A stretch of DNA of 64,000 nt. Origin: an uncultured Chloroflexia bacterium. Its GTDB lineage: Bacteria > Chloroflexota > Dehalococcoidia > SZUA-161. Position 1 is the first letter of the stretch, and every line of letters starts with the position of its first letter. Shown one piece after another: positions 1,962 to 36,889 of the stretch. Under the pieces are notes generated by a model. The model saw only the letters and a list, made by a program, of their open reading frames with translations. It did no database searches and was not told the DNA's origin. The stretch lies in assembly GCA_963847595.1 (NCBI GenBank), contig CAWKAJ010000002.1, positions 1,597,914-1,661,913 on the forward strand. The letters run 5' to 3'. The translations under genes were made by a program, and so were the position numbers.

Positions 1962-3245
1962 TTAGCCCAGCCCCATGGTGGAGAAAAACTCGGAAAACCT
2001 GTTCTTCAGCACGTCGACAGTAGTATATCTCTTGTCAAAGAGGTCGAGCCCTAGAGCCAAGAACGGGACCCCAATGTCGCGGCATACCTGGCGCATGATG
2101 CCTATGCTGGCGGACCCATCCTTATGGCCCATATGCGCGGGCCAGACGACGCAGTCTATCTTGTAATCTTTCACTACCCGCACGATGTCATTCACCAGGG
2201 TATCTGCAGTGCCGCGCACTTGCCTGACCATGGGTAGATCGCACAAATTCCTCTTGGCCAGGCCTCTGAACATGCTTTCCTCGGTCGAGGTGTCAATCAG
2301 CGTGTAGGGTGCATAGCCAGTCATGTCCATTACGATGCATGCCTTCCACTCCGCCTTTAACCACTCTGTCAGCTCGGGTATCCACACAGCAGGGATGTCA
2401 AACCAGAACAACCTTATCCTCTCATCGGGCACGTTTCCCTTACCATCTCTAACTCGCTGCTCTGTTATATCAATAAGCCTCTGGAACCACTCAGTGCCTC
2501 CAGGGTCACCAACCATGAAGCCCTGAGATACATTCCATGCCTGCGCTCCTTTGGCGGCGCTGTGGGGACAGGGCACGGCACGTCTCAGCTCATTATATTC
2601 TGCCCATAACTCGTATTGCTTGTTGGACTCCTTAACAACCTCTCGAAGCCGGTCGATATCCAACCTGCGCCCGGTGTGCTTTTCTATGAATTTTACCATT
2701 AGCCGCAGTTCATCAGCATGGAAATCTATACTTAGGTCGTTCTGCGAATAGGGCGGGTCGGTGCAGAAGGTCGGTACTTTGCGCCAGTACTTGTCGCGAG
2801 CGATTGCCTGATGAAGCATGTCCACACCGTCACAGGGGGAGAGCAGACCGATAAATGCGGTGGGCAGCGGCAGGCGTCCTGCCTGCATATTGCTGATGCC
2901 CAACCTGATAAGCGTGCACATATCGGTGCCCAGCCCGATATTAACGGCTTCATCGACTTGCTCCAGAATATATGGTACCCAGGTCGGCATGAAAGGCAGC
3001 AGCGCAAGCGGGTACCAGGGGAGGTCCAAGGCAACGAACAGCTCCGGAGCGTTCCCGAAAGCGGTCGCGATGAAAGGCTTGCCCTCTTCGGCACATGCAA
3101 CTATGCGATGGTATCTTTCTAACATTGCTTTGACCAGGGTTGCGGTCAGTTGGGTTTCGGGCGACGCACTCTGCTCGAGTCCTTGTAGAGCAAGCTGCAG
3201 TGCGTCACAGTCCTGCTTGAAGCGCTCAAGGCCCCTTATGCCCAT
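1962..3245 (-). CDS. 2-hydroxyacyl-CoA dehydratase family protein (HgdA/HgdB/BcrB/double-cubane-cluster-like), paralog 1. Start set at the MGIRGLERFKQ methionine.
   Basis: Family-typical length (about 428 aa), conserved Cys residues. About 75-80% identical to the downstream paralog, with a near-identical 3' end at nucleotide level. Confidence 0.65.
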   Translation of the reverse strand: MGIRGLERFKQDCDALQLALQGLEQSASPETQLTATLVKAMLERYHRIVACAEEGKPFIATAFGNAPELFVALDLPWYPLALLPFMPTWVPYILEQVDEAVNIGLGTDMCTLIRLGISNMQAGRLPLPTAFIGLLSPCDGVDMLHQAIARDKYWRKVPTFCTDPPYSQNDLSIDFHADELRLMVKFIEKHTGRRLDIDRLREVVKESNKQYELWAEYNELRRAVPCPHSAAKGAQAWNVSQGFMVGDPGGTEWFQRLIDITEQRVRDGKGNVPDERIRLFWFDIPAVWIPELTEWLKAEWKACIVMDMTGYAPYTLIDTSTEESMFRGLAKRNLCDLPMVRQVRGTADTLVNDIVRVVKDYKIDCVVWPAHMGHKDGSASIGIMRQVCRDIGVPFLALGLDLFDKRYTTVDVLKNRFSEFFSTMGLG

Positions 3246-3348
3246 TGTCTCATCCTCTGTTTCGCAACATGACAGTTGCGGTGAGACAATGGTATGTAGA
3301 AATACAGTGCATGTCAAGAGAGTGATGGAGGGCGTTTACCAATCAATT

Positions 3349-3677
3349 TTCAGCCCCCTGTATCCCCCAATCTTGGGGGAGTTTTAAATCTGGGGGATAC
3401 CCCCAGACCCCCAGCAGGAGGCATCCTGCACCTCTTTTTTAACCCCCTGAGCCCCGCTCTTTCCTTTAGAAGGATTGGGGGGGGGGTAAGCTTGGGGCTC
3501 CCCATCCGCCAGGGGCGGACTGCACGTCTCGAAATCCCTCTTAATCCCCCTTTGCAAAAGGGGGGAAAAGAGGGGGGACGGCTGTCGGGCGGTGTTGGGG
3601 CTATCTATTCTATTAGTTCTCTCTTAATGCCTCTTTCATAAAGGGGGAGAAGACGGAGGGCGAGTCTTCGGCAGGGT
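3349..3677. repeat. Dispersed hairpin-rich intergenic repeat, copy C (composite, about 330 bp)
   Basis: Same modules as copy B, including a g-run (gattggggggggg) and the terminal gggtttagcccagcc module. Confidence 0.6.
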
Positions 3678-4961
3678 TTAGCCCAGCCCCATGGTGGAGA
3701 AGAACTCGGAGAACCTGTTCTTCAGGCGGTCTATCGAAGTGTACCTTTTGTCGAAGAGGTCAACCCCCAGAGCCAAAAAGGGCACGCCGATGTCGCGGCA
3801 TACCTGGCGCATGATGCCTATGCTGGCGGACCCATCCTTATGGCCCATATGCGCGGGCCAGACGACGCAGTCTATCTTGTAGTCTTTGACTAACTGAACG
3901 ATGTCATTGGCAAGGGTATCAGCGGTACCGTGAACCTGCCTGACCATGGGCAGCTCGCACAGATTCCTTTTGGCCAGGCCTCTGAACATGCTTTCCTCGC
4001 TCGAGGTGTCAATCAGCGTCTGGGATGCGTAACCCATCATGTCCATCACTATGCAGGCTCCCCACTCCTCTCTGAGCCACTTTGTCAGCTCGGATAACCA
4101 CAGAGCGGGAACGTCAAACCATAACAACCTTATCCTTTCGTTCGGCGCATACCCTTTGCCCTCTTTAACCTGCTGCTTTGTAATGTTGACAAGCTTCCTG
4201 AACCACGCGGTGCCTCTGGGGTCGCCAACCATGAAGTTTTGAGCGATATTCCAGGCCTGCGCTCCCTTGGTAGTGGCGGGAGGACAGGGCACGGCACGCC
4301 TCAGCTCATTATATTTTGCCCACAATTTGTACTGTTTGTTGGATTCCTTGACAACCTCTCTAAGCTGGTCGGTATCCAGCTTGCGCCCGGTCTGTTCTTC
4401 GAGGAAGGACACCATCAGACGCAGTTCGTGAGCGTGAAAATCTACGCTGTGCTCGTTTTCCCAATATGGGGGGTCGGTGCAGAAGACCGGCACGTTGCGC
4501 CAGTAGTCATCGTGAGCTATGGCCTGATGCAGCATAGTCGCACCGTCGCAGGGGGAGAGCAGGCCGACAAATGCGGTGGGCAGAGGCACGCGTGCAGCCT
4601 GAACGTTACTGATACCCAACCTGATGAGGGTGCAGGTATCGGTGCCCAGCCCGAACCTGACGGCTTCATCGATTTCTTCCAGAACAAACGGTGCACGGGT
4701 GGGCAGGTAAGTCACCAGCAGAAGCGGATACCAGGGGAGGTCCAGGGCAACCAGCAGCTCCGGGGCGTTCCCGTAGGAGGTGGCGATGAAAGGCCTGCCC
4801 TCTTCGGCAGCCTCAATGATGCGCTGGGCGGTCTCCAGCATTGCCTCAATCAGGGTTGTAGAAAGCTGGTTTTCGGGCGAACGATTCTGCCCGGACATCT
4901 GAAGAATGAGCTGCAGGGCATCGCGCTCCTGCTTGAAGTGCTCCAGGCCTCTGATAGCCAT
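3678..4961 (-). CDS. 2-hydroxyacyl-CoA dehydratase family protein, paralog 2
   Basis: Starts MAIRGLEHFKQ. Collinear with paralog 1 over its full length. Tandem duplicate. Confidence 0.65.
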   Translation of the reverse strand: MAIRGLEHFKQERDALQLILQMSGQNRSPENQLSTTLIEAMLETAQRIIEAAEEGRPFIATSYGNAPELLVALDLPWYPLLLVTYLPTRAPFVLEEIDEAVRFGLGTDTCTLIRLGISNVQAARVPLPTAFVGLLSPCDGATMLHQAIAHDDYWRNVPVFCTDPPYWENEHSVDFHAHELRLMVSFLEEQTGRKLDTDQLREVVKESNKQYKLWAKYNELRRAVPCPPATTKGAQAWNIAQNFMVGDPRGTAWFRKLVNITKQQVKEGKGYAPNERIRLLWFDVPALWLSELTKWLREEWGACIVMDMMGYASQTLIDTSSEESMFRGLAKRNLCELPMVRQVHGTADTLANDIVQLVKDYKIDCVVWPAHMGHKDGSASIGIMRQVCRDIGVPFLALGVDLFDKRYTSIDRLKNRFSEFFSTMGLG

Positions 4962-5136: not shown

Positions 5137-6948
5137 TCAGGGGAGATTGCCCACAGCCGTCGCCGTGTGGTCGGAGTCCATAGTTACTGTTATCGGATTC
5201 TCTCCGGTTGAGTTCCCCACATCAACCTGCCACTGGTCAAAGCTGCACCCTTCGCCTGTCTCTGCAGTGAGCGTAACATTACCGTTTTCAGGAGTGGAAA
5301 ATGCGGTGGTATCACCAGCAGGCACAGTCTGGTTACCGCAGGGCAGGCCTTCTACCAGAATGGGACAGCAGCCGTTAGAGGTCACGGTCAAAGTGTGTGT
5401 GGGATACCCCGCTGTGACATTGCCTGATGGCCAGTCTATGCTGGCGCAGTCCCACCACTCGTGATTTGACAGAGTCTTGTTCCCTTCGAAGACCAATTCA
5501 TCATTAATCCATATCTTTACTGTTGCCGTAGAGAGAAGACCGGTGTCGTGATCCGAATAATAGTAAACTTTGTATTGATAGATGCCGTTAAAAGGCGGAG
5601 CAGCCAGAACTATGTACTCCGGGCCGTAGCCATCTTGGTTATCCACATCTAATGAGGGGTCACCAGTACTATTACCGCCAGACCTATCCCAGTCAGGATT
5701 CGGGTTGGCAAAGTAGCAATCACCGAACGGATCATTCTCAGTATAGCACGGTGCGATGAGGTGGCTATCGAGGTCGGTATTGTTGGTGTCCCAGGTGAGC
5801 TCGGCTTTTATGGCGTATAACTGAATATTCGCATTGACCGTAACTGTATCGTTCCCTGTCTGGCCACTCGCATCGGTGGCAGTCACAGTTATGCTGTTCG
5901 AGCCTGGAATCAGCTCGACCTGGGTGCTGAAGCTATAGTCATAAGTGCTGTTACCCTGAAGGGTCAACGGCAGAGAACGTGTTTCGCCATTAAGGGTAAT
6001 AATCGCCCCAGTTTCACTATTGACCTCATTCGTGCTGGTCACATTACCTGACACTGTGAGCAGCCTGTTATCCGTTGCAGAACCGTCCTCAGGGCTGGTT
6101 ATCTGCACCTGCGGAGCACCACCACCTGGGGTTGGCGTTGGCGTAGGCGTCAGTGTTGGAATAGGAGTCGATGTAGGCGTGGGAATAGATGCTGGCTGGT
6201 AATAATATTGCGGTGGTACATTGGTAGGTGTCGGTGTAGGCGTAGGCGTTGGGGTAGGTGTGGGTATCGGTGTTGGTGTAACACTAGGTGAGGGGTTAGA
6301 GGGTGGGCAACCCACACATGCAGATGATTGCATGCCTGTGCCCACCAATACTGTCACGTTATTGGCTGTAAATCCTACATCACCTTCTTCTGAACTTAAG
6401 GTGGTGTTACCATCTATCCCTACCAGCACCGTGAATATCGTACCTCTAACAACCGCAGAAGCGGCCGGGGTCTCGACCTCGTATTTAGACTCGGAATCTA
6501 CGAGTTTTTGCACGCGGTTGACAGTGTTCCCAACCAGTTGCTTCAATCCGATAGTGGTGGAGCCGGTGCCTGAAAGGCTCATCTCATTGATGAGTATTTC
6601 GGTGTCAGCCTGCACCTCCATAGTGCTGCCTTCAAAGAAGAGGAGCAGGGCAGTACTGTTGCCACCCGTCTTGAGCTGGTCTCCCGCCTCGAGTTTCATA
6701 CCGGCAACGGCTTGTACCCAGGTTGTAGTACCCTGTTTTTGCACCAGCACCTCTCCGCTGAGAGATGAGATAGTGCTGGGAGGGGAACTGGTAGCAGGAG
6801 TAGGAGTAGGAGTGGGAGCAGGGCTAGGAGTAGCTGTCGGTGTCGGAGTGGCTGCTCCCTGTCCACCACAACTGACAAGCGGCACCAGCAGCATTAGTGC
6901 CAGCAGTAAGGCGATATATCTGAAAGCCATTTGGACCTTAGTAGTCAA
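5137..6948 (-). CDS. Secreted lipoprotein with a FecR-like domain, two Pro/Thr-rich linkers, Ig-like middle region and a C-terminal beta-rich domain
   Basis: Lipobox-like LVSCGG after the signal peptide. FecR-like block [37 protein letters not shown]. Linkers (PT)n. Many N-x-S/T sequons. Confidence 0.55.
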   Translation of the reverse strand: MTTKVQMAFRYIALLLALMLLVPLVSCGGQGAATPTPTATPSPAPTPTPTPATSSPPSTISSLSGEVLVQKQGTTTWVQAVAGMKLEAGDQLKTGGNSTALLLFFEGSTMEVQADTEILINEMSLSGTGSTTIGLKQLVGNTVNRVQKLVDSESKYEVETPAASAVVRGTIFTVLVGIDGNTTLSSEEGDVGFTANNVTVLVGTGMQSSACVGCPPSNPSPSVTPTPIPTPTPTPTPTPTPTNVPPQYYYQPASIPTPTSTPIPTLTPTPTPTPGGGAPQVQITSPEDGSATDNRLLTVSGNVTSTNEVNSETGAIITLNGETRSLPLTLQGNSTYDYSFSTQVELIPGSNSITVTATDASGQTGNDTVTVNANIQLYAIKAELTWDTNNTDLDSHLIAPCYTENDPFGDCYFANPNPDWDRSGGNSTGDPSLDVDNQDGYGPEYIVLAAPPFNGIYQYKVYYYSDHDTGLLSTATVKIWINDELVFEGNKTLSNHEWWDCASIDWPSGNVTAGYPTHTLTVTSNGCCPILVEGLPCGNQTVPAGDTTAFSTPENGNVTLTAETGEGCSFDQWQVDVGNSTGENPITVTMDSDHTATAVGNLP

Positions 6949-7165: not shown

Positions 7166-7226
7166 GCAACATAGAAATCAAAGAGGTCGCTGCTGGGGTA
7201 TCACTGCCCCAGTGCCAGCGACCTCT
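7166..7226 (-). terminator. Rho-independent terminator downstream of archaellin 1
   Basis: On the minus strand, a gaggtcgctgg..ccagcgacctc stem with a nested inner hairpin is followed by tttgatttctatgtt. Confidence 0.45.
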
Positions 7227-7248
7227 CACGTCTTTGCCCGTTTTATCT

Positions 7249-7851
7249 CTAATCAAGGTTCATTACAGCATCAATCCTGGCGGGCAATGTCCGATTCAGG
7301 ATCACGGCTGCACCGGTCACAGGCTTCACCTCAACGGTGAATGTGCTGTAAATGCCGGGACTGGTAGTAAGGTGAGACAGGTCTACCGTAACCACAGCCT
7401 GATCATCCTGCTCCAGCAGGTTACTACCACCGGTGTTCGTGTTCCTGCCTATCCAATTGACAGTCCAGGGCATGTCGGCAACATGCTGGTTGTTGTCGGT
7501 GTAGCTTATTATGGTAACATGGGTGTCATTCCCACCATATGGATTTGGCGACAGGTCAATGGCCTGCCCCTGCAAAGCGTTGGTCAGCGTGAAAGACACC
7601 GCCGTCACGTTCCCGGTGGTGGTGTTACCATAGGCAAACATACTCCCTTTGACCTCCATGGTCGCCCTGGTTTCCGCTATCCCTGCATAGACCGCTTCTT
7701 GGCCCTTCTGGGACGAGAATATGCCTGCCGACAACACTGTGTAGGCGAACACCGATGCCACGACCACGAAGGCAATCAGAATGATCGCCGTCTCCAGGCC
7801 AGTGATGCCTCTCTCATCCCGGCGCAGGTTCTTGTTCAATCCTTTAAGCAT
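7249..7851 (-). CDS. Archaeal-type flagellin (archaellin, FlaB/ArlB-like) with class III (type IV pilin-like) signal peptide
   Basis: N-terminus KNLRRDERG|ITGLETAIILIAFVVVASVFAYTVL is the archaellin signature. Beta-rich C-terminal domain has N-x-T sequons. RBS aggagg upstream. Confidence 0.75.
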   Translation of the reverse strand: MLKGLNKNLRRDERGITGLETAIILIAFVVVASVFAYTVLSAGIFSSQKGQEAVYAGIAETRATMEVKGSMFAYGNTTTGNVTAVSFTLTNALQGQAIDLSPNPYGGNDTHVTIISYTDNNQHVADMPWTVNWIGRNTNTGGSNLLEQDDQAVVTVDLSHLTTSPGIYSTFTVEVKPVTGAAVILNRTLPARIDAVMNLD

Positions 7852-7924
7852 CTCGCTTACCTCCTTTTAGTTTTAGTTCCTTGTCTGTTTCCTTAATCTA
7901 TACCCGATTCCTGATGGCCTGACC

Positions 7925-8536
7925 TTAGTTCAGTATCGTCCAGGGAGCAAGGGAAGCAGGGGTCGTCCTCTCGATAACGAGCACGCTGCCAATGGGCGGC
8001 TTGATGTCTATATCGAATGTATCATAGGTGCCTATGCCCCCAACCGCTTCCAGGTCTATCGTCATCTGGAAGGTCTGGCCGGGACCGAGTATGCTGTTAC
8101 CAGCCGTCACATTGCCCAGTTGCGTCGCAGTCCAGACCAGGTCGTCAACGCGTTGAGTGCTGTCGGAAAAGGAAACAACCACCACGTTGGAGCTGTTTCC
8201 AGCAGCTAGCCCAGGGGTTGTCGTACTGTTGCCCGGCTCCGTCAGGTCGATGGGCTCGCCATTCAAAGCATTAGCTACGCAGATCACCAGGGATTGAATA
8301 GCCGTGCCGTTAGTCTCCGCAACCACATCGCCCCTCAGTTCCAGCGTGGACCTCGCAGTCTGCAGCCCGGTATAGACTGCCTCCTGGCCCTTCTGAGAAG
8401 CGAATATACCTGCTGACAACACAGTGTAGGCAAATACAGAGGCCACAACCACGAAGGCAATCAGGATGATCGCCGTCTCCAGGCCGGTAATGCCTCTCTC
8501 ATCCCTTCGCATTTTCTTTTCTGGTGTTTTCAACAT
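7925..8536 (-). CDS. Archaeal-type flagellin (archaellin), second tandem paralog. Start set at ATG 8536 behind RBS aaggagg.
   Basis: N-terminal 45 residues are nearly identical to archaellin 1 (MRRDERGITGLETAIILIAFVVVA). Variable domain diverges. Confidence 0.75.
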   Translation of the reverse strand: MLKTPEKKMRRDERGITGLETAIILIAFVVVASVFAYTVLSAGIFASQKGQEAVYTGLQTARSTLELRGDVVAETNGTAIQSLVICVANALNGEPIDLTEPGNSTTTPGLAAGNSSNVVVVSFSDSTQRVDDLVWTATQLGNVTAGNSILGPGQTFQMTIDLEAVGGIGTYDTFDIDIKPPIGSVLVIERTTPASLAPWTILN

Positions 8537-9147
8537 CCTTATCCTCCTTATCGGTTTGATGCACTTGTCAATCAAGCCTGCCGTTGTGTTGCAGGCTATC
8601 CTGAAGCCCTGAGTCAAGTTTTGACCATCCGCATCACCTCCTCCGACCTTGACCTTTTACTGCCGATATGTCCTTTCGCTGTGACTTCCCAATTGCATAG
8701 GGCTCTCAAACAAGTATCGGTAGCAATCCTATCAACTGATTAGCTTTTGCACAATCACCGCACAGTACCGTAATAAAAAGTTATATAGTAATGCCTTGAA
8801 GGTAGTACTACCTTACCGAGCAGTTCCCCAAAGAGGGCTAGGTACGCGTTCGAATCAGGTGAACCCGTGAGGGGAAAAAGAAGCCCCGGGGCTGGCTTTA
8901 ACGCCTTATTCCTCGGGGCACCGGTCAAGGCCAGAGGGTCTCGGAAACAAACGACTCTGAAGCGGCCTACTCTCCAGAGCGACATCGATATTTTGCTTCA
9001 GGTCCTGGCTAATAGCAATATTACAAGCGTACTTTTATGCGGCAAACTTCTGTAAGTTTGGTTAACGGCATTGCTCAGCGTTTCAGGACTGAGGGCTTGG
9101 GGGAGGGCGGTTGTGTGGATATTGAGTGACTAGTGCTATCCGGAATG

Positions 9148-10155
9148 CTAGCTGCTCACGCTGAAATAGACTGTTATTGAATCTGTTTCTCCGGAGAGAA
9201 CATCCTGGAATGCCAGATCAGCTTTGTATTGTCCCACGGGAGCGCCCGGCAGCAGGTCTATGTACAAGGCGCCCCAGAGATAGTTGGGGACTGTGTCCAG
9301 TTGCGTTCGGTGAAAGTCAACCGGACTCGTCCCGCTCATGTAAAGCTGCCCATCGGGGCCATATACTTTAACATCGGTTACTCTGTACCAGACTTCGTAT
9401 GTACCGTTAGAAGCGTTCCATGAAAGGTCTGACGCCTCAAAGTAAATCCAGGCCCTCTCCCCCGGGGCAAAAATGGCATCAGGCCTAATCGTATAGTCTC
9501 TGTCTCCGCGCACATCTGAGCATATTTTGACGTTACCTATTTGAAAAGCAGAGGGCGTTGAAGGAGTGCCTCCTGGAGTGGCGCCGGACCACTCCCCTGC
9601 GTTCACTGTCACTGTTGCCCCTTGGGCGGTGAACCAGACAGTACCCTCATCACAATGGATAATGGTGAAGCCATTAACGCCGACATAGGAGTTAAAAGCA
9701 GTCCCCCGCACCACAGCCGAGCCTGCCGGTGTGTCCACTTCATAGCTGGACCCTGAATTGACAAGTTTTTGCACGCGGTTGACAGTATTACCTACAAACT
9801 GCTTCAAATGGATGGAGGTTGAACCCGTGTGAGGGTCAAGAGCCAGCTCATTTAGAAGGATCTCAGAATCGGCCCCGACTTCTACTACGCTTCCTTCAAA
9901 GAAAACAATTTCAGCTGTACTGTTCCCACCGGTTTTGAGGCTGTCACCCTCAAAGACTTTCATGCCGGAAACGGCTTGAATCCAGGTGGTGGAGCCCTGC
10001 TTCTGTACCAGTACCTCTCCGACAGGGGATGATATGGTGCCAGCAGCCGTAGCAGTTGCTTTGTGATTTCCCAATAACACCAACACCAGTGCAACTATGA
10101 TGGCTACCGCCAGTAAAGAGCCCGTCGATATTAAGAGCTTTCGGTGCTTACGCAT
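9148..10155 (-). CDS. Membrane-anchored FecR-like domain protein, paralog of the N-terminal half of 5137..6948
   Basis: N-terminal TM helix, then [45 protein letters not shown], collinear with the 603-aa protein. Confidence 0.55.
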
Positions 10156-10197
10156 TAACTTACCCCCTCGCTCGATATGGTTTGCACAAGAAGACTA

Positions 10198-11214
10198 TCA
10201 ATCCGGTCTACGTCTCCTAAACCACCCAAGGATCAGGAAAACAAACAAAGCCACAAATAACATTCCGCCTATTATCTCGCCTACCATGGCCCAGGGAACC
10301 GCAGCGGCTCCGGGTGCTGGGGTCGGGGCAGGTGTCGGACTCGCTGTCGGCGTTGGTGCAGGCGTAGGCGTTGGTGCTGGCGTGGGCGTTGGGGTAGGCG
10401 TCGCCGTTGGCATGGGTAGCGGTAAATATCCACCACTACCTATCCCGCCTATAATGCCCCAGGTGACCGCGAGTTCCCCCCCTGCAGGGATCGGAGTCGG
10501 CGCAGGCGTTGCTGCCGGCGTAGGCGTTGGTGCCGGCGTGGGCGTTGGTGCTGGCGTGGGCGTTGGTGCCGGCGTGGGTATGGGCGCAAGGCCTAGCGTC
10601 TGTCCCTCCGAGGTCAACTGGACGACTACGATGGTTACAGTCAGGGTATAACTCTGGCCCTGGGGCACTATTTGTCCGGGTTCGGTGCCAACGCCTATGG
10701 ACAGGGCGCCAACCACCTCTTGACCAGCATCTATAGTCTGGTTCAGGTCTATTCCACTAAGTGTGGCAGTCAGCACCGATGTATCAGGGTTCTGAATATC
10801 TATGGACTGGACAATGCCGGGAGTATTCTCTTGATTGCTCAGTCCGAAGAAAACAGTCGGATAGTAGCCAGGATAGGCATTGCTAAGAGTAATGCTAATG
10901 GTGTCCGCGTTCTCGTCGATTGAGGCGGTCGTTGCTGCCACGTTACCGCTAAACCTTCCACAGGCGACACCTGGTGTCTGTGCCTGATAAGGGTCGTTAC
11001 CATTATCGCCGAGGTCAATTCCACTGGGATATTCAGCCGACGTTCCGATGTGGTTGTTATCATTTGATTCCACCCAGGAGAAGGTGCAGAGGCTATTACC
11101 GCCCGGATCAGGGCTGCCGTTGGCATAGGTGATGCCGATAGCTCCCAGTGCTATCAGTGACACTATCAGGACTAACAACGCCAGCCCTAACTTGTCTCTT
11201 TTTTCCGTTATCAT
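10198..11214 (-). CDS. Secreted TasA-like protein with SipW-cognate-type signal peptide, two (PT/PA)n linkers and a C-terminal TM anchor with RRRRPD tail
   Basis: N-terminus [24 protein letters not shown] resembles the TasA signal (LGLALVGGGTWAAF). Core motif [17 protein letters not shown] is shared with the next two genes. Confidence 0.5.
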
Positions 11215-11261
11215 TACTCTATCCTATCCGCCAGCAGCGGGCTCGTTAACCAGATTCCCCA

Positions 11262-12137
11262 TTATGGTACAGCCGTAACGGTATAAGTAATCGTTACCAC
11301 ATAATTTTGGATGCAATCCTGATGGAAAGTGATTGAACCAAATACCTCCTGGCCAGGAGTAACGGTGGCCTGGCTAGCAAAGATACCACCAAGAGTGATC
11401 TTCAAGTCATCAGAGTATGGCGTATAGGAACAGTTGACAGTTACCTTAAGATTGACGCTTCCAGTGTTCTTAATAGTGCAACCAACCGAACTGTAATATC
11501 CTTCATAGGGATTTGTCAGAGTGACAGTCAACTGCTGCGTCCCTGCGCCAGTCACAGTAGTCTGAGCGTCATTGCTGTGACTCCTTGTTCCACTCCAATT
11601 CGAGGATGTTAAGGTGCCGCCGGTCCAGTTCCAGGTGCCCGCTGATGACGGGTCAAGGCTATTATCATGAGTACCGTCGTCATTCGTCACTGCCTGCTGG
11701 CACTGTGCCTGAGGGGTAGTGAACGTTTGATCTTGACCGTACACCGTAAAGAATCCCACTCCTTTGGCTCGGAAGTGATATTTAGTACCGCTTTGTAAAT
11801 TGCTCAGGGCAGCCGTAAAGGCTTTTGGAACGGCTCCGTTCCAAGATGATGGATTCCCTGCCACAGTACCGAGATTATAAATGGGATAATGAGCAGCATC
11901 ACCATATTCAAAGGATACGGTAACACCGCTATTGCCAGGACCCAGGCTATTCAGACTCCCATTAAGAGTAGCTGAAGTAGCGGTTACACTGCTTGCAACA
12001 TTAGTGGTCACTCCTGGGGCTGCGGCAATAGACACAGTCGCTGAAATATGCAAGGGCTGTGACCACCTGGCGTAGCTCACGCCCAGTATTCCCATAGCCA
12101 ACAATAAGACCAGGCAAATCAAGCCCAGTTTCTTCAT
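11262..12137 (-). CDS. Secreted TasA-like protein with SipW-cognate-type signal peptide (paralog)
   Basis: MKKLGLICLVLLLAMGILGVSYARWSQ. Motif TNPYEGYYSSVGCTIKN. Thr/Gly/Ser-rich, beta-rich. Confidence 0.5.
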   Translation of the reverse strand: MKKLGLICLVLLLAMGILGVSYARWSQPLHISATVSIAAAPGVTTNVASSVTATSATLNGSLNSLGPGNSGVTVSFEYGDAAHYPIYNLGTVAGNPSSWNGAVPKAFTAALSNLQSGTKYHFRAKGVGFFTVYGQDQTFTTPQAQCQQAVTNDDGTHDNSLDPSSAGTWNWTGGTLTSSNWSGTRSHSNDAQTTVTGAGTQQLTVTLTNPYEGYYSSVGCTIKNTGSVNLKVTVNCSYTPYSDDLKITLGGIFASQATVTPGQEVFGSITFHQDCIQNYVVTITYTVTAVP

Positions 12138-12194
12138 CTGTTTTCCCTTGTTGCCTTAATTACCATTCGGTCTTTAATCTCCACGGCTAATCTG

Positions 12195-12285
12195 CTTTAA
12201 GGGGGTGGGGTTACCAAACCCCGCGCCCTTAAAAGAAACTAACCCTGGCGGGGGTGGGGTGAAAACCCCACCCCCTACAAAACCA
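12195..12285 (-). terminator. GC-rich tandem hairpins between TasA-like paralogs (terminator or attenuator)
   Basis: On the minus strand: gggggtggggttttcaccccaccccc and ggggtttggtaaccccacccc. Confidence 0.3.
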
Positions 12286-12293
12286 ATCTTAAT

Positions 12294-12914
12294 TTACTGG
12301 TTCTGGCTAGCAGTAACGGTGAATGTAACTGTATAGCTTCCACCCGTTTTCGGCGGGTCTGATGAGGCTCCACCGTTGGTGCCAACACCGATAGTGATTG
12401 TGCCGACAGCAGACGCGCCAACGGCAATAGGAACGGGTCCGGCGGCTAGAGAACCGGTGACCGCTACAGCGAGGTCTGTCGTGGCTCCGCCACCTGAATT
12501 AACCTGCGTCTGCGGCCCACTTGCAACAACCTTTATTGGGACACTGCCGGTATTCGCAACCTGGACGGCAACTGACCCAAAATAGCCGGGATAGGCATTG
12601 TTGATGGTGACAGTCAGAGTGTCACCAGTGACCGTGGTGGTCGTTATGGCGACCGTTGTGTTCCCTACATTTGTGCTTGCCCTCGTCCCGCTGTCCCAGA
12701 CACCACCGCTCCATGAGCCTGCACTACTTGGGTCAAGGATATTACCAGGAGTACCGTCGTCATTGGATACTGCCGACGCGAACTTCGCGCCGAATGTTCC
12801 GGTGTTGACGTTAGCCGTAACATTCAACGACTGGCTCCACGCGGCGTAGCCCACGCCCAGCGCGCCCAGCGCCAGGACTACCACCAGGACTATGAGACCA
12901 ACTTTTTTGTTCAT
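12294..12914 (-). CDS. Secreted TasA-like protein with SipW-cognate-type signal peptide (paralog, 206 aa)
   Basis: MNKKVGLIVLVVVLALGALGVGYAAWSQ. Motif NNAYPGYFGSVAVQVAN. Confidence 0.5.
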   Translation of the reverse strand: MNKKVGLIVLVVVLALGALGVGYAAWSQSLNVTANVNTGTFGAKFASAVSNDDGTPGNILDPSSAGSWSGGVWDSGTRASTNVGNTTVAITTTTVTGDTLTVTINNAYPGYFGSVAVQVANTGSVPIKVVASGPQTQVNSGGGATTDLAVAVTGSLAAGPVPIAVGASAVGTITIGVGTNGGASSDPPKTGGSYTVTFTVTASQNQ

Positions 12915-13793
12915 TTTGTTTCCTCTCCTGTTTTATCTTCGTTTTTTGTCTCTGGATATATTCCCGTTTTTGTTTCTAATTTTTGGTTTCACCCTCCGAT
13001 GCCGACTCATGGGGGCCCCCTTCCACCGATGCTGTGGAAGACCGACCAGGGCTCGCTAGCACCGTGCTCCAAGCCAGGTGTTTTTATCTCCAGAACTAAC
13101 TTCTCATCACCCATAGGAATCATCCCTTTCTCAACTCAGGAATATTTCACGTGGAGAAATCCCTTTTACAAAAGAAAGACCGACCTAAGAAGGTCGGTTT
13201 CACCATTCGCTCGCCGCTGCTTAGGTGACCAAATACAAGCAACGGTTCCCTGCCACCTGTTAATTGCGAGGACGATATGCAGTTTTGGGGTCGTTTGGGG
13301 ACGAATCGACCCGCCAAAATGCAAGCCCCCAGATCTAGTTGCTATCGATATTAAGCTGCTCACCTCCTGCCGCGTAGCGCCTGCTTCCCTGAGGTTCCTC
13401 TGCCGCTCAGCCAGTGATGCCTCTGGGATGGCCTTGTACTAGTGCACAGGCCAGAGATAATTCGGAGCTGAATTCAATCCTCCTTGGTGTAATGCTTCAG
13501 CCATTGCCCCAACAGGTCTCTGGCATTGGAGCAACACAAATACCATGCCCTTTAGTATAGAATATCCTTGGGGAATTAATTACTCGGATATCCCCCCCTT
13601 TTTTGGCAAAAAACACCCCATTTATTGTCATGCATAATCGTCATGCTCTCCGCAAGTAATTTTGCGCCTTCACTCAATGTATGCCCTGAAAAATATAGCA
13701 GGGAAACCTTCGAGGACTGGCGTGTCAAACCCGAACTTTACGACTAGCGGAGAAGAGGCAAGAGCAGTTTCGCACAGTTGACGGTATGGACAC

Positions 13794-13882
13794 CACGGAT
13801 CTCAGCAGACGGATGTCACATATCTGTAATAAGCATAATCGGAACGTGCTCGATGTCGCTAAATCTCCGAAACAAATACAAA
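13794..13882. repeat. About 90-bp direct repeat, copy 1 (copy 2 at 17225..17315)
   Basis: ccacggatctcagcag..acatatctgtaataagcataatcggaacgtgctcgatgtcgctaaatctccgaaacaaatacaaa matches 17225..17315 with few mismatches. Confidence 0.5.
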
Positions 13883-13934
13883 TGCATGTAGGTATTACTG
13901 CTGACCGTCACAGTTAGTGGAATAGGCCTGGACC

Positions 13935-14133
13935 AGATTATGCATGTCTGCCAAGGAGGCCGTCGGCGCCCTGTCAATACGCGTCGGTACCAAACCTGGA
14001 CAAATAGTGCCCCAGGGCAATAGTTATACTGCGAGTGTAACCATCGTAGTCATCCAGTGTACCCAAAGCGGACACACGCTAGTCGTCGGTGCCACCTCCC
14101 TGCCCGCCCCGGCTATTACCTGACAGCTCGAAC
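13935..14133 (+). pseudogene. Inverted C-terminal fragment of a TasA-like gene (paralog of 10198..11214)
   Basis: Translates to [34 protein letters not shown], versus [34 protein letters not shown] in the 338-aa protein. No N-terminal part. No ORF called in the tract. Confidence 0.5.
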
Positions 14134-14385
14134 GGTGCTATGGCCGGCACACTGACCAAGAGCGGCAGCTATAACCTCACTGTCCAAGTGAAGATAGCGC
14201 TGGCGGCAGGGCGATAGCGAACCTCTCAATTAAGACCAATTAGGCCGCATTCGCGGTTGATTCTATCTCGCAAAATGGTATAATAAACGAACAGAACTGT
14301 CGCCTGAAAAAATTCTCACGAAGCGTATTGATTTCGCCTTCTCTCTTGACGTATTTTGCCCCCTCATCTTAAACTGTTCTAGCCA

Positions 14386-15573
14386 TTGCAAGAGTTCGTG
14401 GTGGAGCTTATATATATGAGCAGCGCTATCACTTGCGGCTTGGTTGGTGCAATTTACGTCGTCATAAACGTTTTACTCCCCCATATCGCCATTGACACAC
14501 TCATCAAGGCTTATGTATTCCAGCCGTTGCTGTGGGGACTCCTTATCCTGGCCATCCGTTTACTGCCGGGCTACAGGCCACTGGCGAAAATCAAGGCTAG
14601 GGGCACGTTCATCCAGGTGGCCCTAGGGATTGCTTTCGTAGAGGTACTCCTTAATGTCATTAGCGGACTGTTTTCTAGCTTCGGCAAGAACCCGGCGTCC
14701 CTCACCACGTTGGGCATCACTGAGAACCTGTTTTTTGTGGGCTCAATGCTGGTCGCCATGGAGCTGAGCCGGGCATCGCTGGTCACGCGCCTGGGAAAGC
14801 GGCACAGCTTTCTAGCGTTGGCTTTTGTGACTCTGCTCTATACTTTTATTGCCATCCCATTAAGCCAGATTACCAGCTTCAAGCTGCAAATTGGATCAAC
14901 CAACTTGGTGATTTCCACCTGGTTGCCCCTACTGGCGGAGAGCTTGCTGGCGTCATTTCTCGCCTTCATAGCCGGAGCGCGCGCCTCGCTGGCTTACCGC
15001 AGCCTGTTGGCAGCTTTCTGGTGGTTCTGTCCTATCCTCCCTAACGCGACCTGGGCGCTCAAAGGACTTATCGGCGTCGTCGTGCCAATCGTGGGGATAG
15101 TAGTTGTAAGCAGGTTTTATTCGGCACAAGCCAATCGAGGCAAAGCTAGGCGGCGGGCAAGCAAAGCTTCCTTCCCTGCTGGTTGGATTACTGTCATGCT
15201 GGTAGCTGTGGTAATCGTCTGGTTCTCGGTGGGAGTTTTTCCGTTTCAGCCATGGGTCGTGGGCAGCGGCAGCATGACTCCCGTGCTGCGGACCGGCGAC
15301 GTTGTCATTGTCGATAAGGTGTCGGCGGATGCCATCAAGGTGGGTGATATTGTCGAGTACCGGGAAGCTGGACACAGTGACATAGTTCACCGAGTAATAA
15401 GCATTGAGCAGACAGGACAAGCGAAATCGTTCATAACCAAGGGTGACGCCAACACTCTGCCCGATGCAAACCCGGTCATGGCGGCAAATGTGATAGGGAA
15501 GGTTGTGTTCACTATACCTAAGGTTGGCTGGATTGCTCTTGGCATAAAGAAGCTATTGACAACGAGGACATGA
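14386..15573 (+). CDS. Signal peptidase I of the SipW/ER type (S26 family), fused to an N-terminal polytopic membrane domain of about 290 aa
   Basis: C-terminal GSGSMTPVLRTGDVVIVDKV..DIVHRV..TKGDAN has Ser and His catalytic motifs. The N-terminal region is very hydrophobic with multiple TM helices. Confidence 0.6.
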   Translation: MQEFVVELIYMSSAITCGLVGAIYVVINVLLPHIAIDTLIKAYVFQPLLWGLLILAIRLLPGYRPLAKIKARGTFIQVALGIAFVEVLLNVISGLFSSFGKNPASLTTLGITENLFFVGSMLVAMELSRASLVTRLGKRHSFLALAFVTLLYTFIAIPLSQITSFKLQIGSTNLVISTWLPLLAESLLASFLAFIAGARASLAYRSLLAAFWWFCPILPNATWALKGLIGVVVPIVGIVVVSRFYSAQANRGKARRRASKASFPAGWITVMLVAVVIVWFSVGVFPFQPWVVGSGSMTPVLRTGDVVIVDKVSADAIKVGDIVEYREAGHSDIVHRVISIEQTGQAKSFITKGDANTLPDANPVMAANVIGKVVFTIPKVGWIALGIKKLLTTRT

Positions 15574-17153
15574 GTGGTAGACTTAAACCTAAAACGATTG
15601 CTTCAGGTAATAAAGGAGGCCCAACTCCAGTGAGAAGGTACCTTCTTCTTGTGGTCAGCGCAGTCCTGCTATTTGTGTCACTAGCTGGCGTACTGGCTAC
15701 GAACGGCATACCCACCCAGATAAAGAAAGAGGCGGCGCTGGTCAATTATGAGCATGAAGGCACATTTGATTATCTGATACACTTAAAGCCCTCTGCGCTG
15801 TACGGTTCTGCGCCTACGTCATCATACCCGGCAGCGATTGTTGGCTCGCTTGATTTCACCTTCAGCTATAACCCGGTGGAGAGCGTACCAGAGTCGGCTT
15901 CAGTAGATGCCATCCTGGAAAATCCGGGCATCTGGCAAAAGAAGATTGTACTGGTGCCAGAAACGACTACCACGGGGAATTTCACTTGTAGTTTTTCCCT
16001 CGACATAGACCAGATTATAAAGCTATTTGACGATACTGAGAGTGAGCTCAACATTCCTTCTTCGGAGCGCTACTTATCTATCGAGGCTGATGTTACAAAT
16101 TCGAGTGGGGTCTTTACCCAAAGCCTGCCCATCACGCTAACCGATACAGTGATTGACGTGAGCAACGGCCTGAGCTACAGGCAGTTTTCGGGAACTGGCA
16201 GCTTCCAATATATTGTGAACCTGAAGCCAAACTCGACCTTCGATACCTCAACCCTCGAGCCGCCACAAGCCGCAGATAATGCATCCCCCACTCTTGGGCC
16301 GGGACAGACAGTGTTCTCCCAGCTTGTTGATGGCATGGATGCGTCCTTCCAATATGCGTTTAACGCCGATAAGCCCGTTGCGAATGTGACCACGGATACA
16401 CAGATAACAGCCAGCATAGACGTACCCAACTTCTGGTCGAGAACGTTCCCTGTGCTGAGCGTCAGTAAGGGCGGGAATTTCACCATCGATTTTCCTATCG
16501 ACCTGGCCGGTTATCTGAACTTGCTTGACGCCTTTAATGCTGAGACAGGCGTAGCATCTGCTTCCTCGGAGGTAGCTGTTGACGCTCAGGTCCATACCGT
16601 TGGGCAAAGCCAGTTCGGCCCGATAGATGAGACATACAGCCAAGAGATGAAGGGTACGATAACAGGAGGTGTCATCGAGTGGCAGACGGAATTGACCAAG
16701 ACCCAGACCGGTGCCACACAACAGGTCACGCTGGTTAGCAATGCCAGCAAATATTTGGGGCTTTCCGTCAATAGGGCAAAGACTCTGACCAGGGCTCTGA
16801 CAGCAATATTCCTTCTCTTCCTTGTGGTCTCCTTAATACTGTATTTTAGATCCAGACGTGCGCTGCGCCCCCCCATAAATATGGAAGCGTTGCAAATCCA
16901 GAAAAAGTACAGGCAGAGGATTGCTGAAGCGACAAGTCAAACGCCGTCAGAAAACGGGGCTCTGATAAATTTGGGCTCTATGGAAAGCCTGATCAGCGTA
17001 GCCGATGAGCTGGGCAAACCGATAATCCACCAGGCACCAGGCACTCCTGAAGGACGACACGCTTACTATATATTGGATGGAACAATACGATACCAGTACC
17101 TGCCCTCTAGCGGCATTCTGGAACAGAACAACGATATGGAAGAGACTGGGTAG
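15570..17153 (+). CDS. Bitopic membrane protein with a large extracytoplasmic domain containing an internal duplication, translationally coupled to the signal peptidase
   Basis: Shares an atga start/stop overlap with the upstream gene. TM helices sit near both ends. Internal repeat: EGTFDYLIHLKPSALY versus TGSFQYIVNLKPNSTF. Confidence 0.45.
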   Translation: MSGRLKPKTIASGNKGGPTPVRRYLLLVVSAVLLFVSLAGVLATNGIPTQIKKEAALVNYEHEGTFDYLIHLKPSALYGSAPTSSYPAAIVGSLDFTFSYNPVESVPESASVDAILENPGIWQKKIVLVPETTTTGNFTCSFSLDIDQIIKLFDDTESELNIPSSERYLSIEADVTNSSGVFTQSLPITLTDTVIDVSNGLSYRQFSGTGSFQYIVNLKPNSTFDTSTLEPPQAADNASPTLGPGQTVFSQLVDGMDASFQYAFNADKPVANVTTDTQITASIDVPNFWSRTFPVLSVSKGGNFTIDFPIDLAGYLNLLDAFNAETGVASASSEVAVDAQVHTVGQSQFGPIDETYSQEMKGTITGGVIEWQTELTKTQTGATQQVTLVSNASKYLGLSVNRAKTLTRALTAIFLLFLVVSLILYFRSRRALRPPINMEALQIQKKYRQRIAEATSQTPSENGALINLGSMESLISVADELGKPIIHQAPGTPEGRHAYYILDGTIRYQYLPSSGILEQNNDMEETG

Positions 17154-17224
17154 CCCGCCTGAGCTTGTCAACCAATGGCTGGATTGTGGTCCTGTCTCCC
17201 GTAAATGTACGTCTGTAGTATATG

Positions 17225-17315
17225 CCACGGATCTTAGCAGGCAAAGGTTACATATCTGTAATAAGCATGATCGGAACGTACTAGATATCGCTGAATTCCC
17301 GAAACAAATACGAAC
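17225..17315. repeat. About 90-bp direct repeat, copy 2
   Basis: Matches 13794..13882. It overlaps the 3' end of the vWA-like reading frame. Confidence 0.5.
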
Positions 17316-17970
17316 TCGTTGGGGTTGCCGTCGGAGGCGAAGATGACTAAATCAGGGTGGTCTGGACGATTATTGGGCCCTGCCAAGTAATTGTATGCTG
17401 CGAGCAGTCCTTGCTCCCAGTTAGTAGATTGAGTGCCTGGTAATCTCGTTGCATCAATCGTTGTCTTAATCAAAGCCGCATTATTGGTGAAATCCAAACC
17501 AGGATGGGCAATGGTGCCGAAGTCCACCAGCGCGAACTCGGTAGGCGTGCCGGGGAGAAGGGCATCAACAAAACCATTGAACGCCGTCCGCATCTGATTG
17601 AGCTCGGCGTCGGAGTAGGCACTCTGTTTGCTACCGTCACAGTAATAGTGTCGATGTCATGCCAATCGTTAACGTTGCCCCTATATTGTGATCTTATACC
17701 ATACTGACCATCGGGCACGGTGGTCGTATCCCAGGGCACAGCATGAGGGCTTTGGCCTTGTCCCCCAACTGTTGTCCACGAACCACTGCTATCAAGTCTG
17801 TACTGGAATCGTTGGGTATTGTGAAGCGAGCCTTCGCTAATCTGTATAGTCCCGCTTACGGTAGCTCCATTGGTTGGCTGAGTAATATTTGCCGTGGCTG
17901 GCCCTGCAAGTGATAGCGCGGCCGTGGTCAATGCGACAAATAACCCAGGGATGCTGAAATTTAATCCCAT
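17234..17970 (-). pseudogene. Probable frameshifted secreted Ig-like plus vWA-domain gene
   Basis: The signal peptide and Ig-like module (ITQPTNGATVSGTIQI) run in one frame. The vWA-like C-terminus (DLVIFASDGNPN) lies in another frame from about 17600. Stops sit upstream of the second frame. Confidence 0.35.
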
Positions 17971-22704: not shown

Positions 22705-23294
22705 GCTCTAATCCTCCTCAGGATGGCATTGAGCCGATTGAGGTCGCCGCTCAGCAGAACAGCGATTTCCTTGCCTGCTTTTACCAGGAAGGCGCGCCTG
22801 TCGTCCTGGGCGCAGCTCGCCTGCCGCAGGCAGGCGGAAACTATCTCGTCCACCGTCCCTGTTCGGGTATTGAGCAATATGGGCAGGAAATCAAGCGATT
22901 GAGTGAAGCCGCGTACCTCGTCCTTTTCGCAGAGATAGACGAAGCTGTGGACGCGGGGTGGGCGGGGCGGCAGGTAATGCAGGGGCACAGCGCGCTGTGC
23001 CCCTACGCTGTGTCCGATGACAAGAGTATCGAATGTGGTGCGTAGCAGCTTGGAAAGCTGCGGATTTTGACGATAAATACTCTCCTCGGTGGCTTCCTCC
23101 CTGCCCCGCGCTATGGGACGGCGGTTTGGCTCTATGCTCTCCGTGGCGGCGTTGCAGACCACGCCGTAAATCTCTACATCGCCGTCGCTGGTCTTAACCA
23201 GGCTGCCCAGGGGTGGGGGGGAGTGCAATTCATAGCATTCTGCCACGAACTGCCCTGTGCTGGCCTCGATGACCTCGCCTATCTTGTCTGGCAA
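22701..23294 (-). CDS. Hypothetical protein with HAS-barrel-like N-terminus (IGEVIEASTGQF..VKTSDGDVEIYGVV), overlapping the herA start
   Basis: ORF with a 4-nt overlap to herA. No other motifs recognised. Confidence 0.35.
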   Translation of the reverse strand: MPDKIGEVIEASTGQFVAECYELHSPPPLGSLVKTSDGDVEIYGVVCNAATESIEPNRRPIARGREEATEESIYRQNPQLSKLLRTTFDTLVIGHSVGAQRAVPLHYLPPRPPRVHSFVYLCEKDEVRGFTQSLDFLPILLNTRTGTVDEIVSACLRQASCAQDDRRAFLVKAGKEIAVLLSGDLNRLNAILRRIRA

Positions 23295-23866
23295 ATCAGT
23301 TCTCCTCGCGGTTTGAGTTCATTCATCTGCCTGTCCGGATTATTTTCGTCCACATTCCATTTTACAGGGTTGTCAAGGGTGTATTGGCGGATATCGTTCA
23401 AATCATGTTCGTTGCGGATGACGTGTTCATAGTAATTGCGCTGCCATCTAAAATCGAGATGTCCAGCGCGGCGACAGCGGGTTGTCACTGCGGCTTTATA
23501 GGTACGCATAATTATGGCCAGCTTATTTCGCTGTGGGGAGATGGTAGAAAATCGGTTGTTGGTAATACGGATTGTAGGGGCGTTCAATTGAACGCCCCTA
23601 CGGAGGGCAATGAAGACGATTCCGTGTAAATGATTTGGCATGATAATCCATTCATCCAATTGAACATTTGGAAAATGGTTGGGAATTTCTATCCAACATT
23701 GTTCTGCAATGGCACGGATTTTCTTCTTTTCGAACAGTAACGCCTTATTATGTGTGCAAATGGTCACAAAATACGCCCCTTCCTGGGAATAGTCGTAATC
23801 CTCTAAACGGAGGGAATGGCGCTGGCGCTGTTCTATGTCGGGTGCCAATTTTGACCTCAAATCCAC
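23279..23866 (-). mobile_element. REP-associated tyrosine transposase (RAYT / TnpA_REP, IS200-like Y1 HUH enzyme). Non-ATG start (GTG 23866 or TTG 23849).
   Basis: DYDYSQEGAYFVTICT N-terminus. HuH motif MPNHLHGIV. Catalytic Tyr motif WQRNYYEHVIRNE. Confidence 0.7.
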
Positions 23867-29218: not shown

Positions 29219-29271
29219 TTTTGTCCTCCCTATATCACTTAACGTGCAAACCCGATAGCTTGTGGAGCCTT

Positions 29272-29320
29272 CTTCAACCCCCTGAGTTCTTCTCCTTCCT
29301 GGGATTGGGGGATCCATTAT
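29272..29320. repeat. Dispersed repeat, partial copy E
   Basis: ttcaaccccctgag..gggattgggggatcc. First module only. Confidence 0.45.
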
Positions 29321-29407
29321 ATCCAGGCGCATCCCTGTATGTCTGAGACCCTTCGCTAAAGCTCAGGGTGACATTTATATTCTCCACCCTTGGGAGGTCG
29401 CCATGAA

Positions 29408-36880: not shown

Positions 36881-36889
36881 ATTGTAGTT

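Follow-up and report, generated by a model that had tools for sequence, protein, structure and literature searches.

Here, we describe a tandem pair of genes for archaellins (arlB1 and arlB2) in a 64,000-nucleotide stretch of DNA (the window throughout) from an uncultured bacterium of the Dehalococcoidia (assembly GCA_963847595.1, contig CAWKAJ010000002.1, positions 1,597,914 to 1,661,913 of the forward strand). Both genes encode true archaellins, one of the ArlB1 type and one of the ArlB2 type, in a Dehalococcoidia (Chloroflexota) genome. The pair stands apart from the motor genes, and very probably it supplies functional archaellins of the horizontally acquired Chloroflexota archaellum from an accessory second locus. 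Alignments to relatives identify this locus as a segmental copy, ~1.9 kb long, of the archaellum operon's head; the copy has since lost most of its HTH_17 gene. Related loci are cited below by L numbers and database proteins by P numbers. The two genes, with lengths in amino acids (aa), are:

7925..8536, minus strand: arlB1, 'first-position' archaellin of 203 aa (PF01917, PDB and fold matches, tree)
7249..7851, minus strand: arlB2, 'second-position' archaellin of 200 aa, starting with ATG (PF01917, tree, identity to P0242)

Two archaellins in a bacterial genome

An earlier reading made from the sequence only had proposed a Pfam search for the archaellin family, and this search gave full-profile matches to Arch_flagellin (PF01917; gathering threshold 29.5 bits) for both proteins, the arlB1 product scoring 94.3 bits over profile positions 1-162 of 162 and the arlB2 product 76.2 bits over positions 1-159 of 162. 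Both also match the NCBIfam model of the archaellin/pilin N-terminal domain (TIGR02537) at 33-34 bits, the cut-off being 20, and beside it NCBIfam gave one 'flagellin' subfamily model (E <= 0.1). Bacterial pilin families, namely the methylation motif PF07963/TIGR02532 and the Flp motif PF04964, gave no match at E <= 0.1 in the Pfam and NCBIfam scans. The two products are identical to the database proteins P0001 (arlB1) and P0242 (arlB2), and they are 49% identical to each other, with 39 of 44 helix residues and 44 of 148 residues of the globular domain in common.

The class III signal peptides recognized by the sequence-only reading are present in both proteins, each with a short basic leader that runs up to RRDERG and is followed directly by ITGLETAIILIAFVVVASVFAYTVL. 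For arlB1 the signal peptide is MLKTPEKKMRRDERG, with a predicted cut before I17 that leaves ITGLETAIILIAFVVV. The top PDB sequence match of ArlB1 is 9i5h, the ArlB archaellin of Litorilinea aerophila (E 2.3e-36; its sequence is the same as 9sie and 9sii), and residues 17-197 of ArlB1 align with residues 1-176 of this chain. Cleavage between RG and I is supported because residue 1 of the solved L. aerophila chain aligns with I17. Weaker PDB sequence matches are the archaellins of A. pernix, M. hungatei, S. islandicus, S. acidocaldarius, M. villosus, P. furiosus and M. maripaludis.

Structure prediction agrees with the sequence matches. The AlphaFold2 model of ArlB1, with a predicted local distance difference test score (pLDDT) of 79, has a helix at residues 18-57 and a beta-rich domain with eight strands. 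When it was compared with the PDB using Foldseek, ranks 1-17 were all archaellins, the best being again 9i5h (E 5e-15, template-modelling scores 0.58/0.64), and the archaellum stator proteins FlaG and FlaF came after them. The 50 PDB matches listed contain no bacterial type IV or Tad pilin.

The two tandem genes had been placed at 7249-8617, and both are real and lie on the minus strand, although their upstream limit is 8536 rather than 8617. The open reading frame (ORF) of arlB1 can be read from a TTG at 8617, which would give 230 aa. We take the ATG at 8536 as the true start because the homologues all begin MLK... there and because AAGGAGG lies 6 nucleotides (nt) before it. The alternative start at 8617 falls within the remnant of another gene, HTH_17.

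The host is bacterial, as the sequence-only reading had it: among the genes that it named, Pfam confirms those for FtsH, MnmE, Der, RadA, ribosomal protein S16 and FabF, and it adds PlsY, GpsA and a Mur-ligase-like protein. An archaeal piece of DNA that was mis-binned or mis-assembled into a bacterial contig would have the archaeal affinity of the protein family in its favor and nothing more. Against such an artefact, bacterial genes flank the pair in an order that recurs in at least four independent assemblies and several metagenome contigs; the G+C content around it (0.52-0.53) is like that of the rest of the window; and all 34 of the 34 related loci, taken from species-representative genomes, belong to Dehalococcoidia or unclassified Chloroflexota metagenome-assembled genomes (MAGs). 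We regard the chance of an artefact as negligible.

P0001, P0242 and a third archaellin, P0016, are recorded on a 1,748,546-bp NCBI/ENA contig. P0016 is 82% identical to ArlB1, and its N-terminus, MLKRLAKTMRRDERG, is the form seen in most relatives' ArlB1 copies, including operon-linked ones such as P0023 in L035.

A second locus apart from the motor genes

ORFs were called in the 34 related loci and clustered, and the resulting families were named using Pfam. The species representatives scanned for these loci do not include the source genome itself (best match 82%). The operon in these relatives reads arlB1-arlB2-(ArlCDE-like)-arlG-arlF-arlH-arlI-arlJ, and motor genes follow the archaellins in 21-23 of the 34 loci. 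Five families come after the archaellins: an ArlG-like protein (weak PF01917), ArlF (PF22201, FlaF_Ig-like), ArlH (KaiC), ArlI (T2SSE) and ArlJ (T2SSF); the ArlCDE-sized protein of the operon has no Pfam match. Placing arlG before arlF is the arl2 arrangement. In complete operons, a small HTH_17 (excisionase/BldC-like) gene, identified through Pfam and TIGR01764, lies 5' of arlB1.

Some of these loci have peculiarities of their own. In L035 (ENA contig_69712, 1.35 Mb; the contig that holds the operon and P0023), arlB2 is split into pieces of 90 and 117 aa (10681-11276) and arlJ is truncated to 261 aa (15564-17033); these breaks probably reflect frameshifts introduced in error by a long-read assembly and not true pseudogenes. 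The operon of L015 (CP070819.1, a 2.1-Mb Dehalococcoidia chromosome) has two tandem ArlI (T2SSE) genes encoding 581 and 583 aa (13168-16685). About 870 kb from it, L010 holds a lone archaellin gene with the usual upstream neighbors of the operon and without motor genes, so archaellin genes apart from the motor recur in Dehalococcoidia.

The window pair is without the linkage to archaellum-specific genes (arlC-J) that its orthologues have in those 21-23 loci. Searching the 64-kb window by tblastn (E <= 0.01) gave no homologue of ArlF, ArlG, ArlI, ArlJ or the ArlCDE-like protein, the lone hit being the RecA fold in RadA, and a Pfam scan of essentially all its long ORFs gave no T2SSE, T2SSF, ArlH-type KaiC or A24 peptidase. 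The sequence-only reading had claimed that motor and peptidase genes were missing within 30 kb on either side; this is true of the window, which extends for only 7.2 kb beyond the pair in one direction, so the 30-kb claim can be verified in the other direction only.

Its suggestion that the motor is encoded elsewhere is borne out. The 1,748,546-bp contig is also the recorded location of a full-length ArlF, P0337 (177 aa, PF22201), with 79% identity to its counterpart in L002. The 1.4-kb Logan contig L036 encodes exactly this ArlF; immediately upstream of it lies an ArlG-type gene, preceded by the end of another gene. Elsewhere in the same genome there are therefore genes for the motor of the window archaellins, or at least for its stator.

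The sequence-only reading had offered, as its other option, that the subunits serve a different machinery. Candidates would be a bacterial pilus of the Tad or type IVa kind, or a non-rotary pilus of the archaeal type. Bacterial type IV pilins, too, have a glutamate at position +5 (here ITGLE), and no motor gene is linked to the pair within the window. Some Chloroflexota with an archaellum have genes for Tad or type IVa pili as well (PMC12488501). These points are outweighed by the close relationship to archaellum subunits. Both genes nest among the operon-linked ArlB1 and ArlB2, to which they are 75-84% identical (80-84% for arlB2 against the second archaellin of L002-L006); 43 of the 44 residues of the ArlB1 helix are identical to those of P0016; an ITxLE N-terminus is found in the proven archaellin of L. 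aerophila as well; and in two genomes the copies at the stand-alone locus and in the operon are closest to one another, suggesting that they can be interchanged. Together with the absence of pilin families and pilin folds from the searches above, this makes a different machine very improbable.

The relationship of the pair to the operon is seen in a neighbour-joining tree of 72 family members, in which the archaellins split into 'first-position' and 'second-position' types. The pair copies the first two genes of the operon, because arlB1 falls in the first type and arlB2 in the second, each with operon-linked copies. Within the first-position clade, ArlB1 is sister to P0016, which comes from the same genome.

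Gene order shows that the locus is shared. On one flank the window, L003, L005 and L006 have in common an MGMT-like gene and a gene for the 2-hydroxyglutaryl-CoA dehydratase D-component (HGD-D); on the opposite flank the window, L003 and L005 share a chagasin-type I42 inhibitor gene and a methyltransferase gene; and with L003 only, synteny extends to DUF6125, HerA/NurA and FtsH. On another contig, the MAGs of L003, L005 and L006 also have the full operon (L002, L004 and L021). The stand-alone pair thus marks a second locus, which is conserved and exists beside the operon.

The layout of L006 (JACWAE010000035.1, 6783-13301) is a hybrid. Upstream it has the neighbors of full operons (a radical-SAM protein, family F36, a hydrolase, family F15, and HTH_17), and downstream of arlB2 it has the stand-alone neighbors (HGD-D and the MGMT-like gene). 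The motor genes of this MAG are on the other contig, L021, which begins with an arlB2-type gene. The hybrid reflects either real recombination between archaellin loci or an assembly join across a repeat.

The signals around the pair are as follows:

8543..8549, minus strand: Shine-Dalgarno sequence AAGGAGG of arlB1, 6 nt 5' of the ATG (direct reading; kept in all stand-alone and operon copies)
7860..7866, minus strand: Shine-Dalgarno sequence AAGGAGG of arlB2, 8 nt 5' of the ATG, in the 73-nt intergenic spacer (direct reading)
7170..7227, minus strand: intrinsic-terminator-like hairpin, 18 bp with a 3-nt bulge, then UUUGAUUUCU (RNA fold; putative function)
8575..8597, minus strand: leader hairpin AGCCUGC-N9-GCAGGCU in the 5' region of arlB1 (conserved in stand-alone and operon copies)
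8614..8654, minus strand: frameshifted remnant of the last ~13 codons of HTH_17 (alignment to operon DNA)
8715..8801, minus strand: conserved non-coding block, candidate promoter/operator region (blastn)

Three of these features tie the locus to the operon. The operon HTH_17 gene ends GGTCAAGG...GATGATCAAAGCCTAG, which encodes ...GQGQREVIGMIKA and the stop codon; the window has the same DNA minus 1 nt, and the rest of the gene is gone. Stand-alone loci retain only the last ~45 nt of HTH_17, and HTH_17 proteins gave no tblastn match in the window. In blastn comparisons, the block at 8715..8801 is 72-82% identical to the upstream regions of L001, L002, L004, L006 and L035, and ~80% identical to L003/L005. 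The hairpin after arlB2 begins ~20 nt past the stop codon and folds at -37.6 kcal/mol (z = -5.5), a stability that none of 200 shuffles reached; its arms are kept in L003, L005 and the operon L002, and its T-rich tail is found in the stand-alone loci only. Because the 3' remnant of HTH_17, the upstream block and the post-arlB2 hairpin are all shared, the locus is a segmental duplicate of ~1.9 kb from the operon head.

The leader hairpin takes the form GCCCGC...GCGGGC in L001, with one compensatory change. We considered an upstream mini-ORF (a Shine-Dalgarno site plus MVKT and a stop codon) as a leader peptide and rejected it, because the sequence belongs to the 3' end of HTH_17, whose frame is broken in the window. 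Another terminator-like hairpin, at 8881-8898, lies between the archaellin pair and the upstream gene.

Further upstream, at 8872-9032 on the minus strand, there is a highly conserved non-coding block of ~160 nt without codon periodicity, which ends in a GC-rich hairpin and a T-run and in most copies is preceded on its 5' side by the extended -10-like motif TGGTAATAT. The block lies upstream of the archaellin pair in the window, L003, L005, L037, L040, L041 and L042, and occurs once (L038) without a downstream archaellin. Searches gave neither an Rfam match above noise nor a tRNA, and in a comparison of seven sequences compensatory changes were absent from all 39 predicted pairs. The block could be a small RNA gene; a structured RNA is unproven.

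The two loci also seem to have exchanged sequence. The JAJYLC MAG has stand-alone and operon copies that are mutual closest relatives, with a synonymous divergence (dS) of 0.15-0.28 against 0.30-0.53 between genomes, and ArlB1 of the window is in the same way nearest to P0016. Since the synteny of the stand-alone locus is shared between genomes, gene conversion between the two loci would explain such within-genome closeness better than repeated duplication into the same site; we infer this from the neighbour-joining tree, which is unsupported.

Proposed function and surface loops

Both ORFs are intact in the window and in every readable stand-alone relative (L003, L005, L006 and L040). The ratio of non-synonymous to synonymous substitution rates (dN/dS) of the pair against syntenic and operon orthologues is 0.25-0.58 (0.25-0.30 for arlB2), which falls in the same range as between operon copies and shows that the pair is under purifying selection.

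The segment copied from the operon head comprised the putative promoter region, HTH_17, arlB1, arlB2 and the post-arlB2 hairpin; it was inserted between the I42-inhibitor gene and the HGD-D gene in an ancestor of this Dehalococcoidia clade, most of HTH_17 being lost afterwards. In the scheme that we propose, the pair would be transcribed as its own two-gene unit. The pre-archaellins would be put into the membrane, where a prepilin-type peptidase encoded elsewhere would cut the signal peptide of 16 residues (ArlB1) or 15 residues (ArlB2) between G and I. The ArlH/I/J motor and ArlF/G stator of the main operon, on the same chromosome, would polymerize the subunits through their nearly invariant N-terminal helix. 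The extra copies may raise the supply of archaellin, alter the filament surface, or both; the differences from the operon-type paralog lie almost only in exposed loops that bear N-x-S/T sequons. The most likely role of the locus is thus that of an independent two-gene unit feeding additional or alternative subunits to the machinery of the main operon, and we infer that the pair is expressed, processed and co-assembled in this way.

The loops themselves can be compared. ArlB1 and P0016 have 108 of 147 residues of the globular domain in common, and their differences lie in the sequon-bearing loops. The sequence-only reading had pointed to several N-x-S/T sequons per protein. There are indeed four in each archaellin, although singly the counts are not significant (1.6 and 2.6 expected; p ~0.055 and 0.25). 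Over 72 family members, 205 sequons were observed against 136 +/- 10 in shuffles, a figure that is indicative only, the sequences being related. The sequons cluster near positions 76 (34 sequences) and 114 (25 sequences) of ArlB1, and the position-76 loop aligns with the T66 loop of L. aerophila ArlB.

Another protein of the window carries sequons of the same form. The secreted FecR-domain protein encoded at 5137-6948 has 13 N-x-S/T sequons (8.1 expected), 11 of which are of the form G-N-x-S/T, and this form also makes up three of the four sequons of each archaellin. The cytoplasmic proteins of the window that were tested have 0-2 sequons. These counts and the shared G-N-x-S/T form may point to a general system that N-glycosylates surface proteins. 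No oligosaccharyltransferase of the STT3 type is encoded in the window, and a full-text literature search found no paper pairing Dehalococcoid with oligosaccharyltransferase.

More speculatively, the pair may be a separately regulated 'ecoparalog' cassette, which has lost HTH_17, undergoes gene conversion with the operon copies and changes exposed and maybe N-glycosylated loops, for example in phage evasion or under particular conditions. We consider this elaboration doubtful, while the simpler role as an accessory source of archaellins remains our preferred explanation.

Several points weigh against that explanation. The paralog tree has no support values. ArlF is placed with the archaellins by the identical contig size of 1,748,546 bp and not by coordinates. 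The presence of arlH, arlI and arlJ in the source genome is presumed from the conserved operon rather than seen directly. No ArlJ from the 1.75-Mb contig is among the members listed in 16 clusters; it may hide in large clusters at 90% identity, ArlJ being 89-96% identical among the closest relatives. The prepilin peptidase was not located, the window having no Peptidase_A24. Scanning for the sigma-70 consensus upstream of arlB1 found no promoter. Finally, the window subunits are, to judge by the alignment, not identical in detail to the solved L. aerophila ArlB: the acidic residues of its proposed metal site, D127, E131 and E134, correspond to N, G and Q in ArlB1 (residues ~143-150) and also in P0016. 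In the relatives P0023, P0013 and P0012 the equivalent residues stay D, D and E, and ArlB2 is acidic at the latter two of the three positions.

Some of these points could be taken to mean that the genes are silent or decaying duplicates and that the filament is built from the operon-linked archaellins only. The loss of the HTH_17 regulator gene from the duplicate, the lack of a recognizable sigma-70-type promoter and the replaced residues of the putative metal site in ArlB1 would all fit. Decay is nevertheless hard to reconcile with the intact ORFs, with dN/dS values like those of operon copies, or with the strong Shine-Dalgarno sites, conserved leader and terminator that have been kept; the replacements in P0016 also mark the altered putative metal site as a trait of the lineage. 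We therefore find silent copies improbable, though less so than a different filament machine.

Neighboring genes and known archaella

Next to the pair there are secreted proteins on both sides. The 603-aa FecR-domain protein (5137-6948, minus strand), an insertion between arlB2 and HGD-D, has an N-terminal domain paralogous to the one in a second secreted FecR-domain protein (9148-10155), so FecR paralogs flank the archaellin pair. This second protein belongs to a gene island at 9148-17970. L003 and L005 lack the island in the interval from arlB1 to the I42-inhibitor gene, and in metagenome relatives its length differs. The island also contains secreted proteins (Pro/Thr-rich and unannotated ones), an archaeal/SipW-type signal peptidase I with an N-terminal extension of ~260 aa (14386-15573; TIGR02228, 103 bits) and, adjoining it, a DUF5305 protein (15570-17153). 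This layout recalls SipW/TasA-type fibre loci; a TasA-like family was not detected there.

Elsewhere in the window, a local gene amplification has put two tandem HGD-D genes (1962-4961) in the place of the one in L003, L005 and L006. Two small unannotated genes lie between the HerA and NurA genes (21076-25065), and this whole group is syntenic in L003; a gene for a PAC2-family protein is near it (28433-29332). Three consecutive enoyl-CoA hydratase paralogs, a second local amplification, occupy 36068-38582 (36068-36880, 36977-37786 and 37698-38582). There are several ADP-forming acyl-CoA synthetase-type genes (52679-56427 and 58801-60261), a type commoner in archaea, in an otherwise bacterial context.

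Archaella in Chloroflexota have already been described (Sivabalasarma et al., 2025; PMC12488501). Complete archaellum loci were found in 243 of 3,780 Chloroflexota genomes, in Dehalococcoidia and Anaerolineae, and derive from Methanotecta-type archaea (PMC12488501). The sequence-only reading had presented bacterial archaella as known only from a few Chloroflexota lineages; they are known from this phylum, but the novelty was overstated, as Dehalococcoidia are among the groups named. According to the same study, Chloroflexota have the arl2 arrangement with arlG before arlF, arlB is present in single or multiple copies, ten genomes have a second locus, which is incomplete in nine, and the signal peptidase is encoded outside the archaellum locus (PMC12488501). 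For L. aerophila, motility and a 2.7-A cryo-electron microscopy structure of the filament were reported, 9SIE/9SII being identified as its archaellum in the data-availability statement; the mature subunit starts at isoleucine, O-glycan density was seen at T66 of ArlB, and D127, E131 and E134 were proposed as a metal site (PMC12488501). A further paper, Palmer et al. 2023 (PMC10284905), was rejected as a precedent, since it covers the bacterial flagella of Tepidiforma and not archaella.

The closest solved relative is therefore L. aerophila ArlB (PDB 9I5H/9SIE/9SII), from the same phylum. It has the same family and fold as the window archaellins, ~44% identity over the whole mature chain, cleavage before Ile and a nearly identical N-terminal helix, and the relatives of the window share its arl2-type operon with arlG before arlF. 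Unlike in L. aerophila, the window archaellin genes stand alone, away from the motor genes, and the putative metal-site residues differ in ArlB1 as set out above. L. aerophila shows O-glycan densities, whereas the window family has enriched and clustered N-x-S/T sequons, one of them in the T66-equivalent loop. Filament and motility have been demonstrated for L. aerophila, whereas the window organism is uncultured and known from its genes alone.

Euryarchaeal archaellins of the Methanotecta type such as FlaB3 of Methanospirillum hungatei (PDB 5TFY) have the N-terminal helix motif and the fold in common with ArlB1; sequence similarity spans the N-terminal ~85 residues only, and the globular domain is nearer to the L. 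aerophila protein.

A precedent for two separate sets of archaellin genes exists in archaea: Halobacterium salinarum has arlA1-A2 and arlB1-B3 at two loci, and in the 'ecoparalogs' of Haloarcula marismortui arlA2 is on a plasmid and arlB is beside accessory genes (reviewed in PMC10117864). As in the window, these are tandem archaellin genes away from the arl accessory or motor genes, and paralogs with near-identical N-terminal regions and short hypervariable surface regions bearing sequons. The window differs in that its host is bacterial and that the HTH_17 remnant reveals its second locus as a copy of the operon head; any condition-specific use of its copies would be by analogy with the ecoparalogs.

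No new principle is involved here, since Chloroflexota archaella, including those of Dehalococcoidia, were described, imaged and solved in 2025 (PMC12488501). What is added is a conserved, archaellin-only second locus in one Dehalococcoidia clade, whose origin from the operon head is still legible. An archaellin gene without a nearby motor need not be an orphan or point to a new machinery, and genome-scan rules that demand co-localization would label such loci 'incomplete'. The enrichment of sequons also raises the question of whether bacterial archaellins of the window type are N-glycosylated, unlike the O-glycosylated filament of L. aerophila. If they are, at the enriched sequons, this would depart from the O-glycosylation of the only bacterial archaellum that has been solved.

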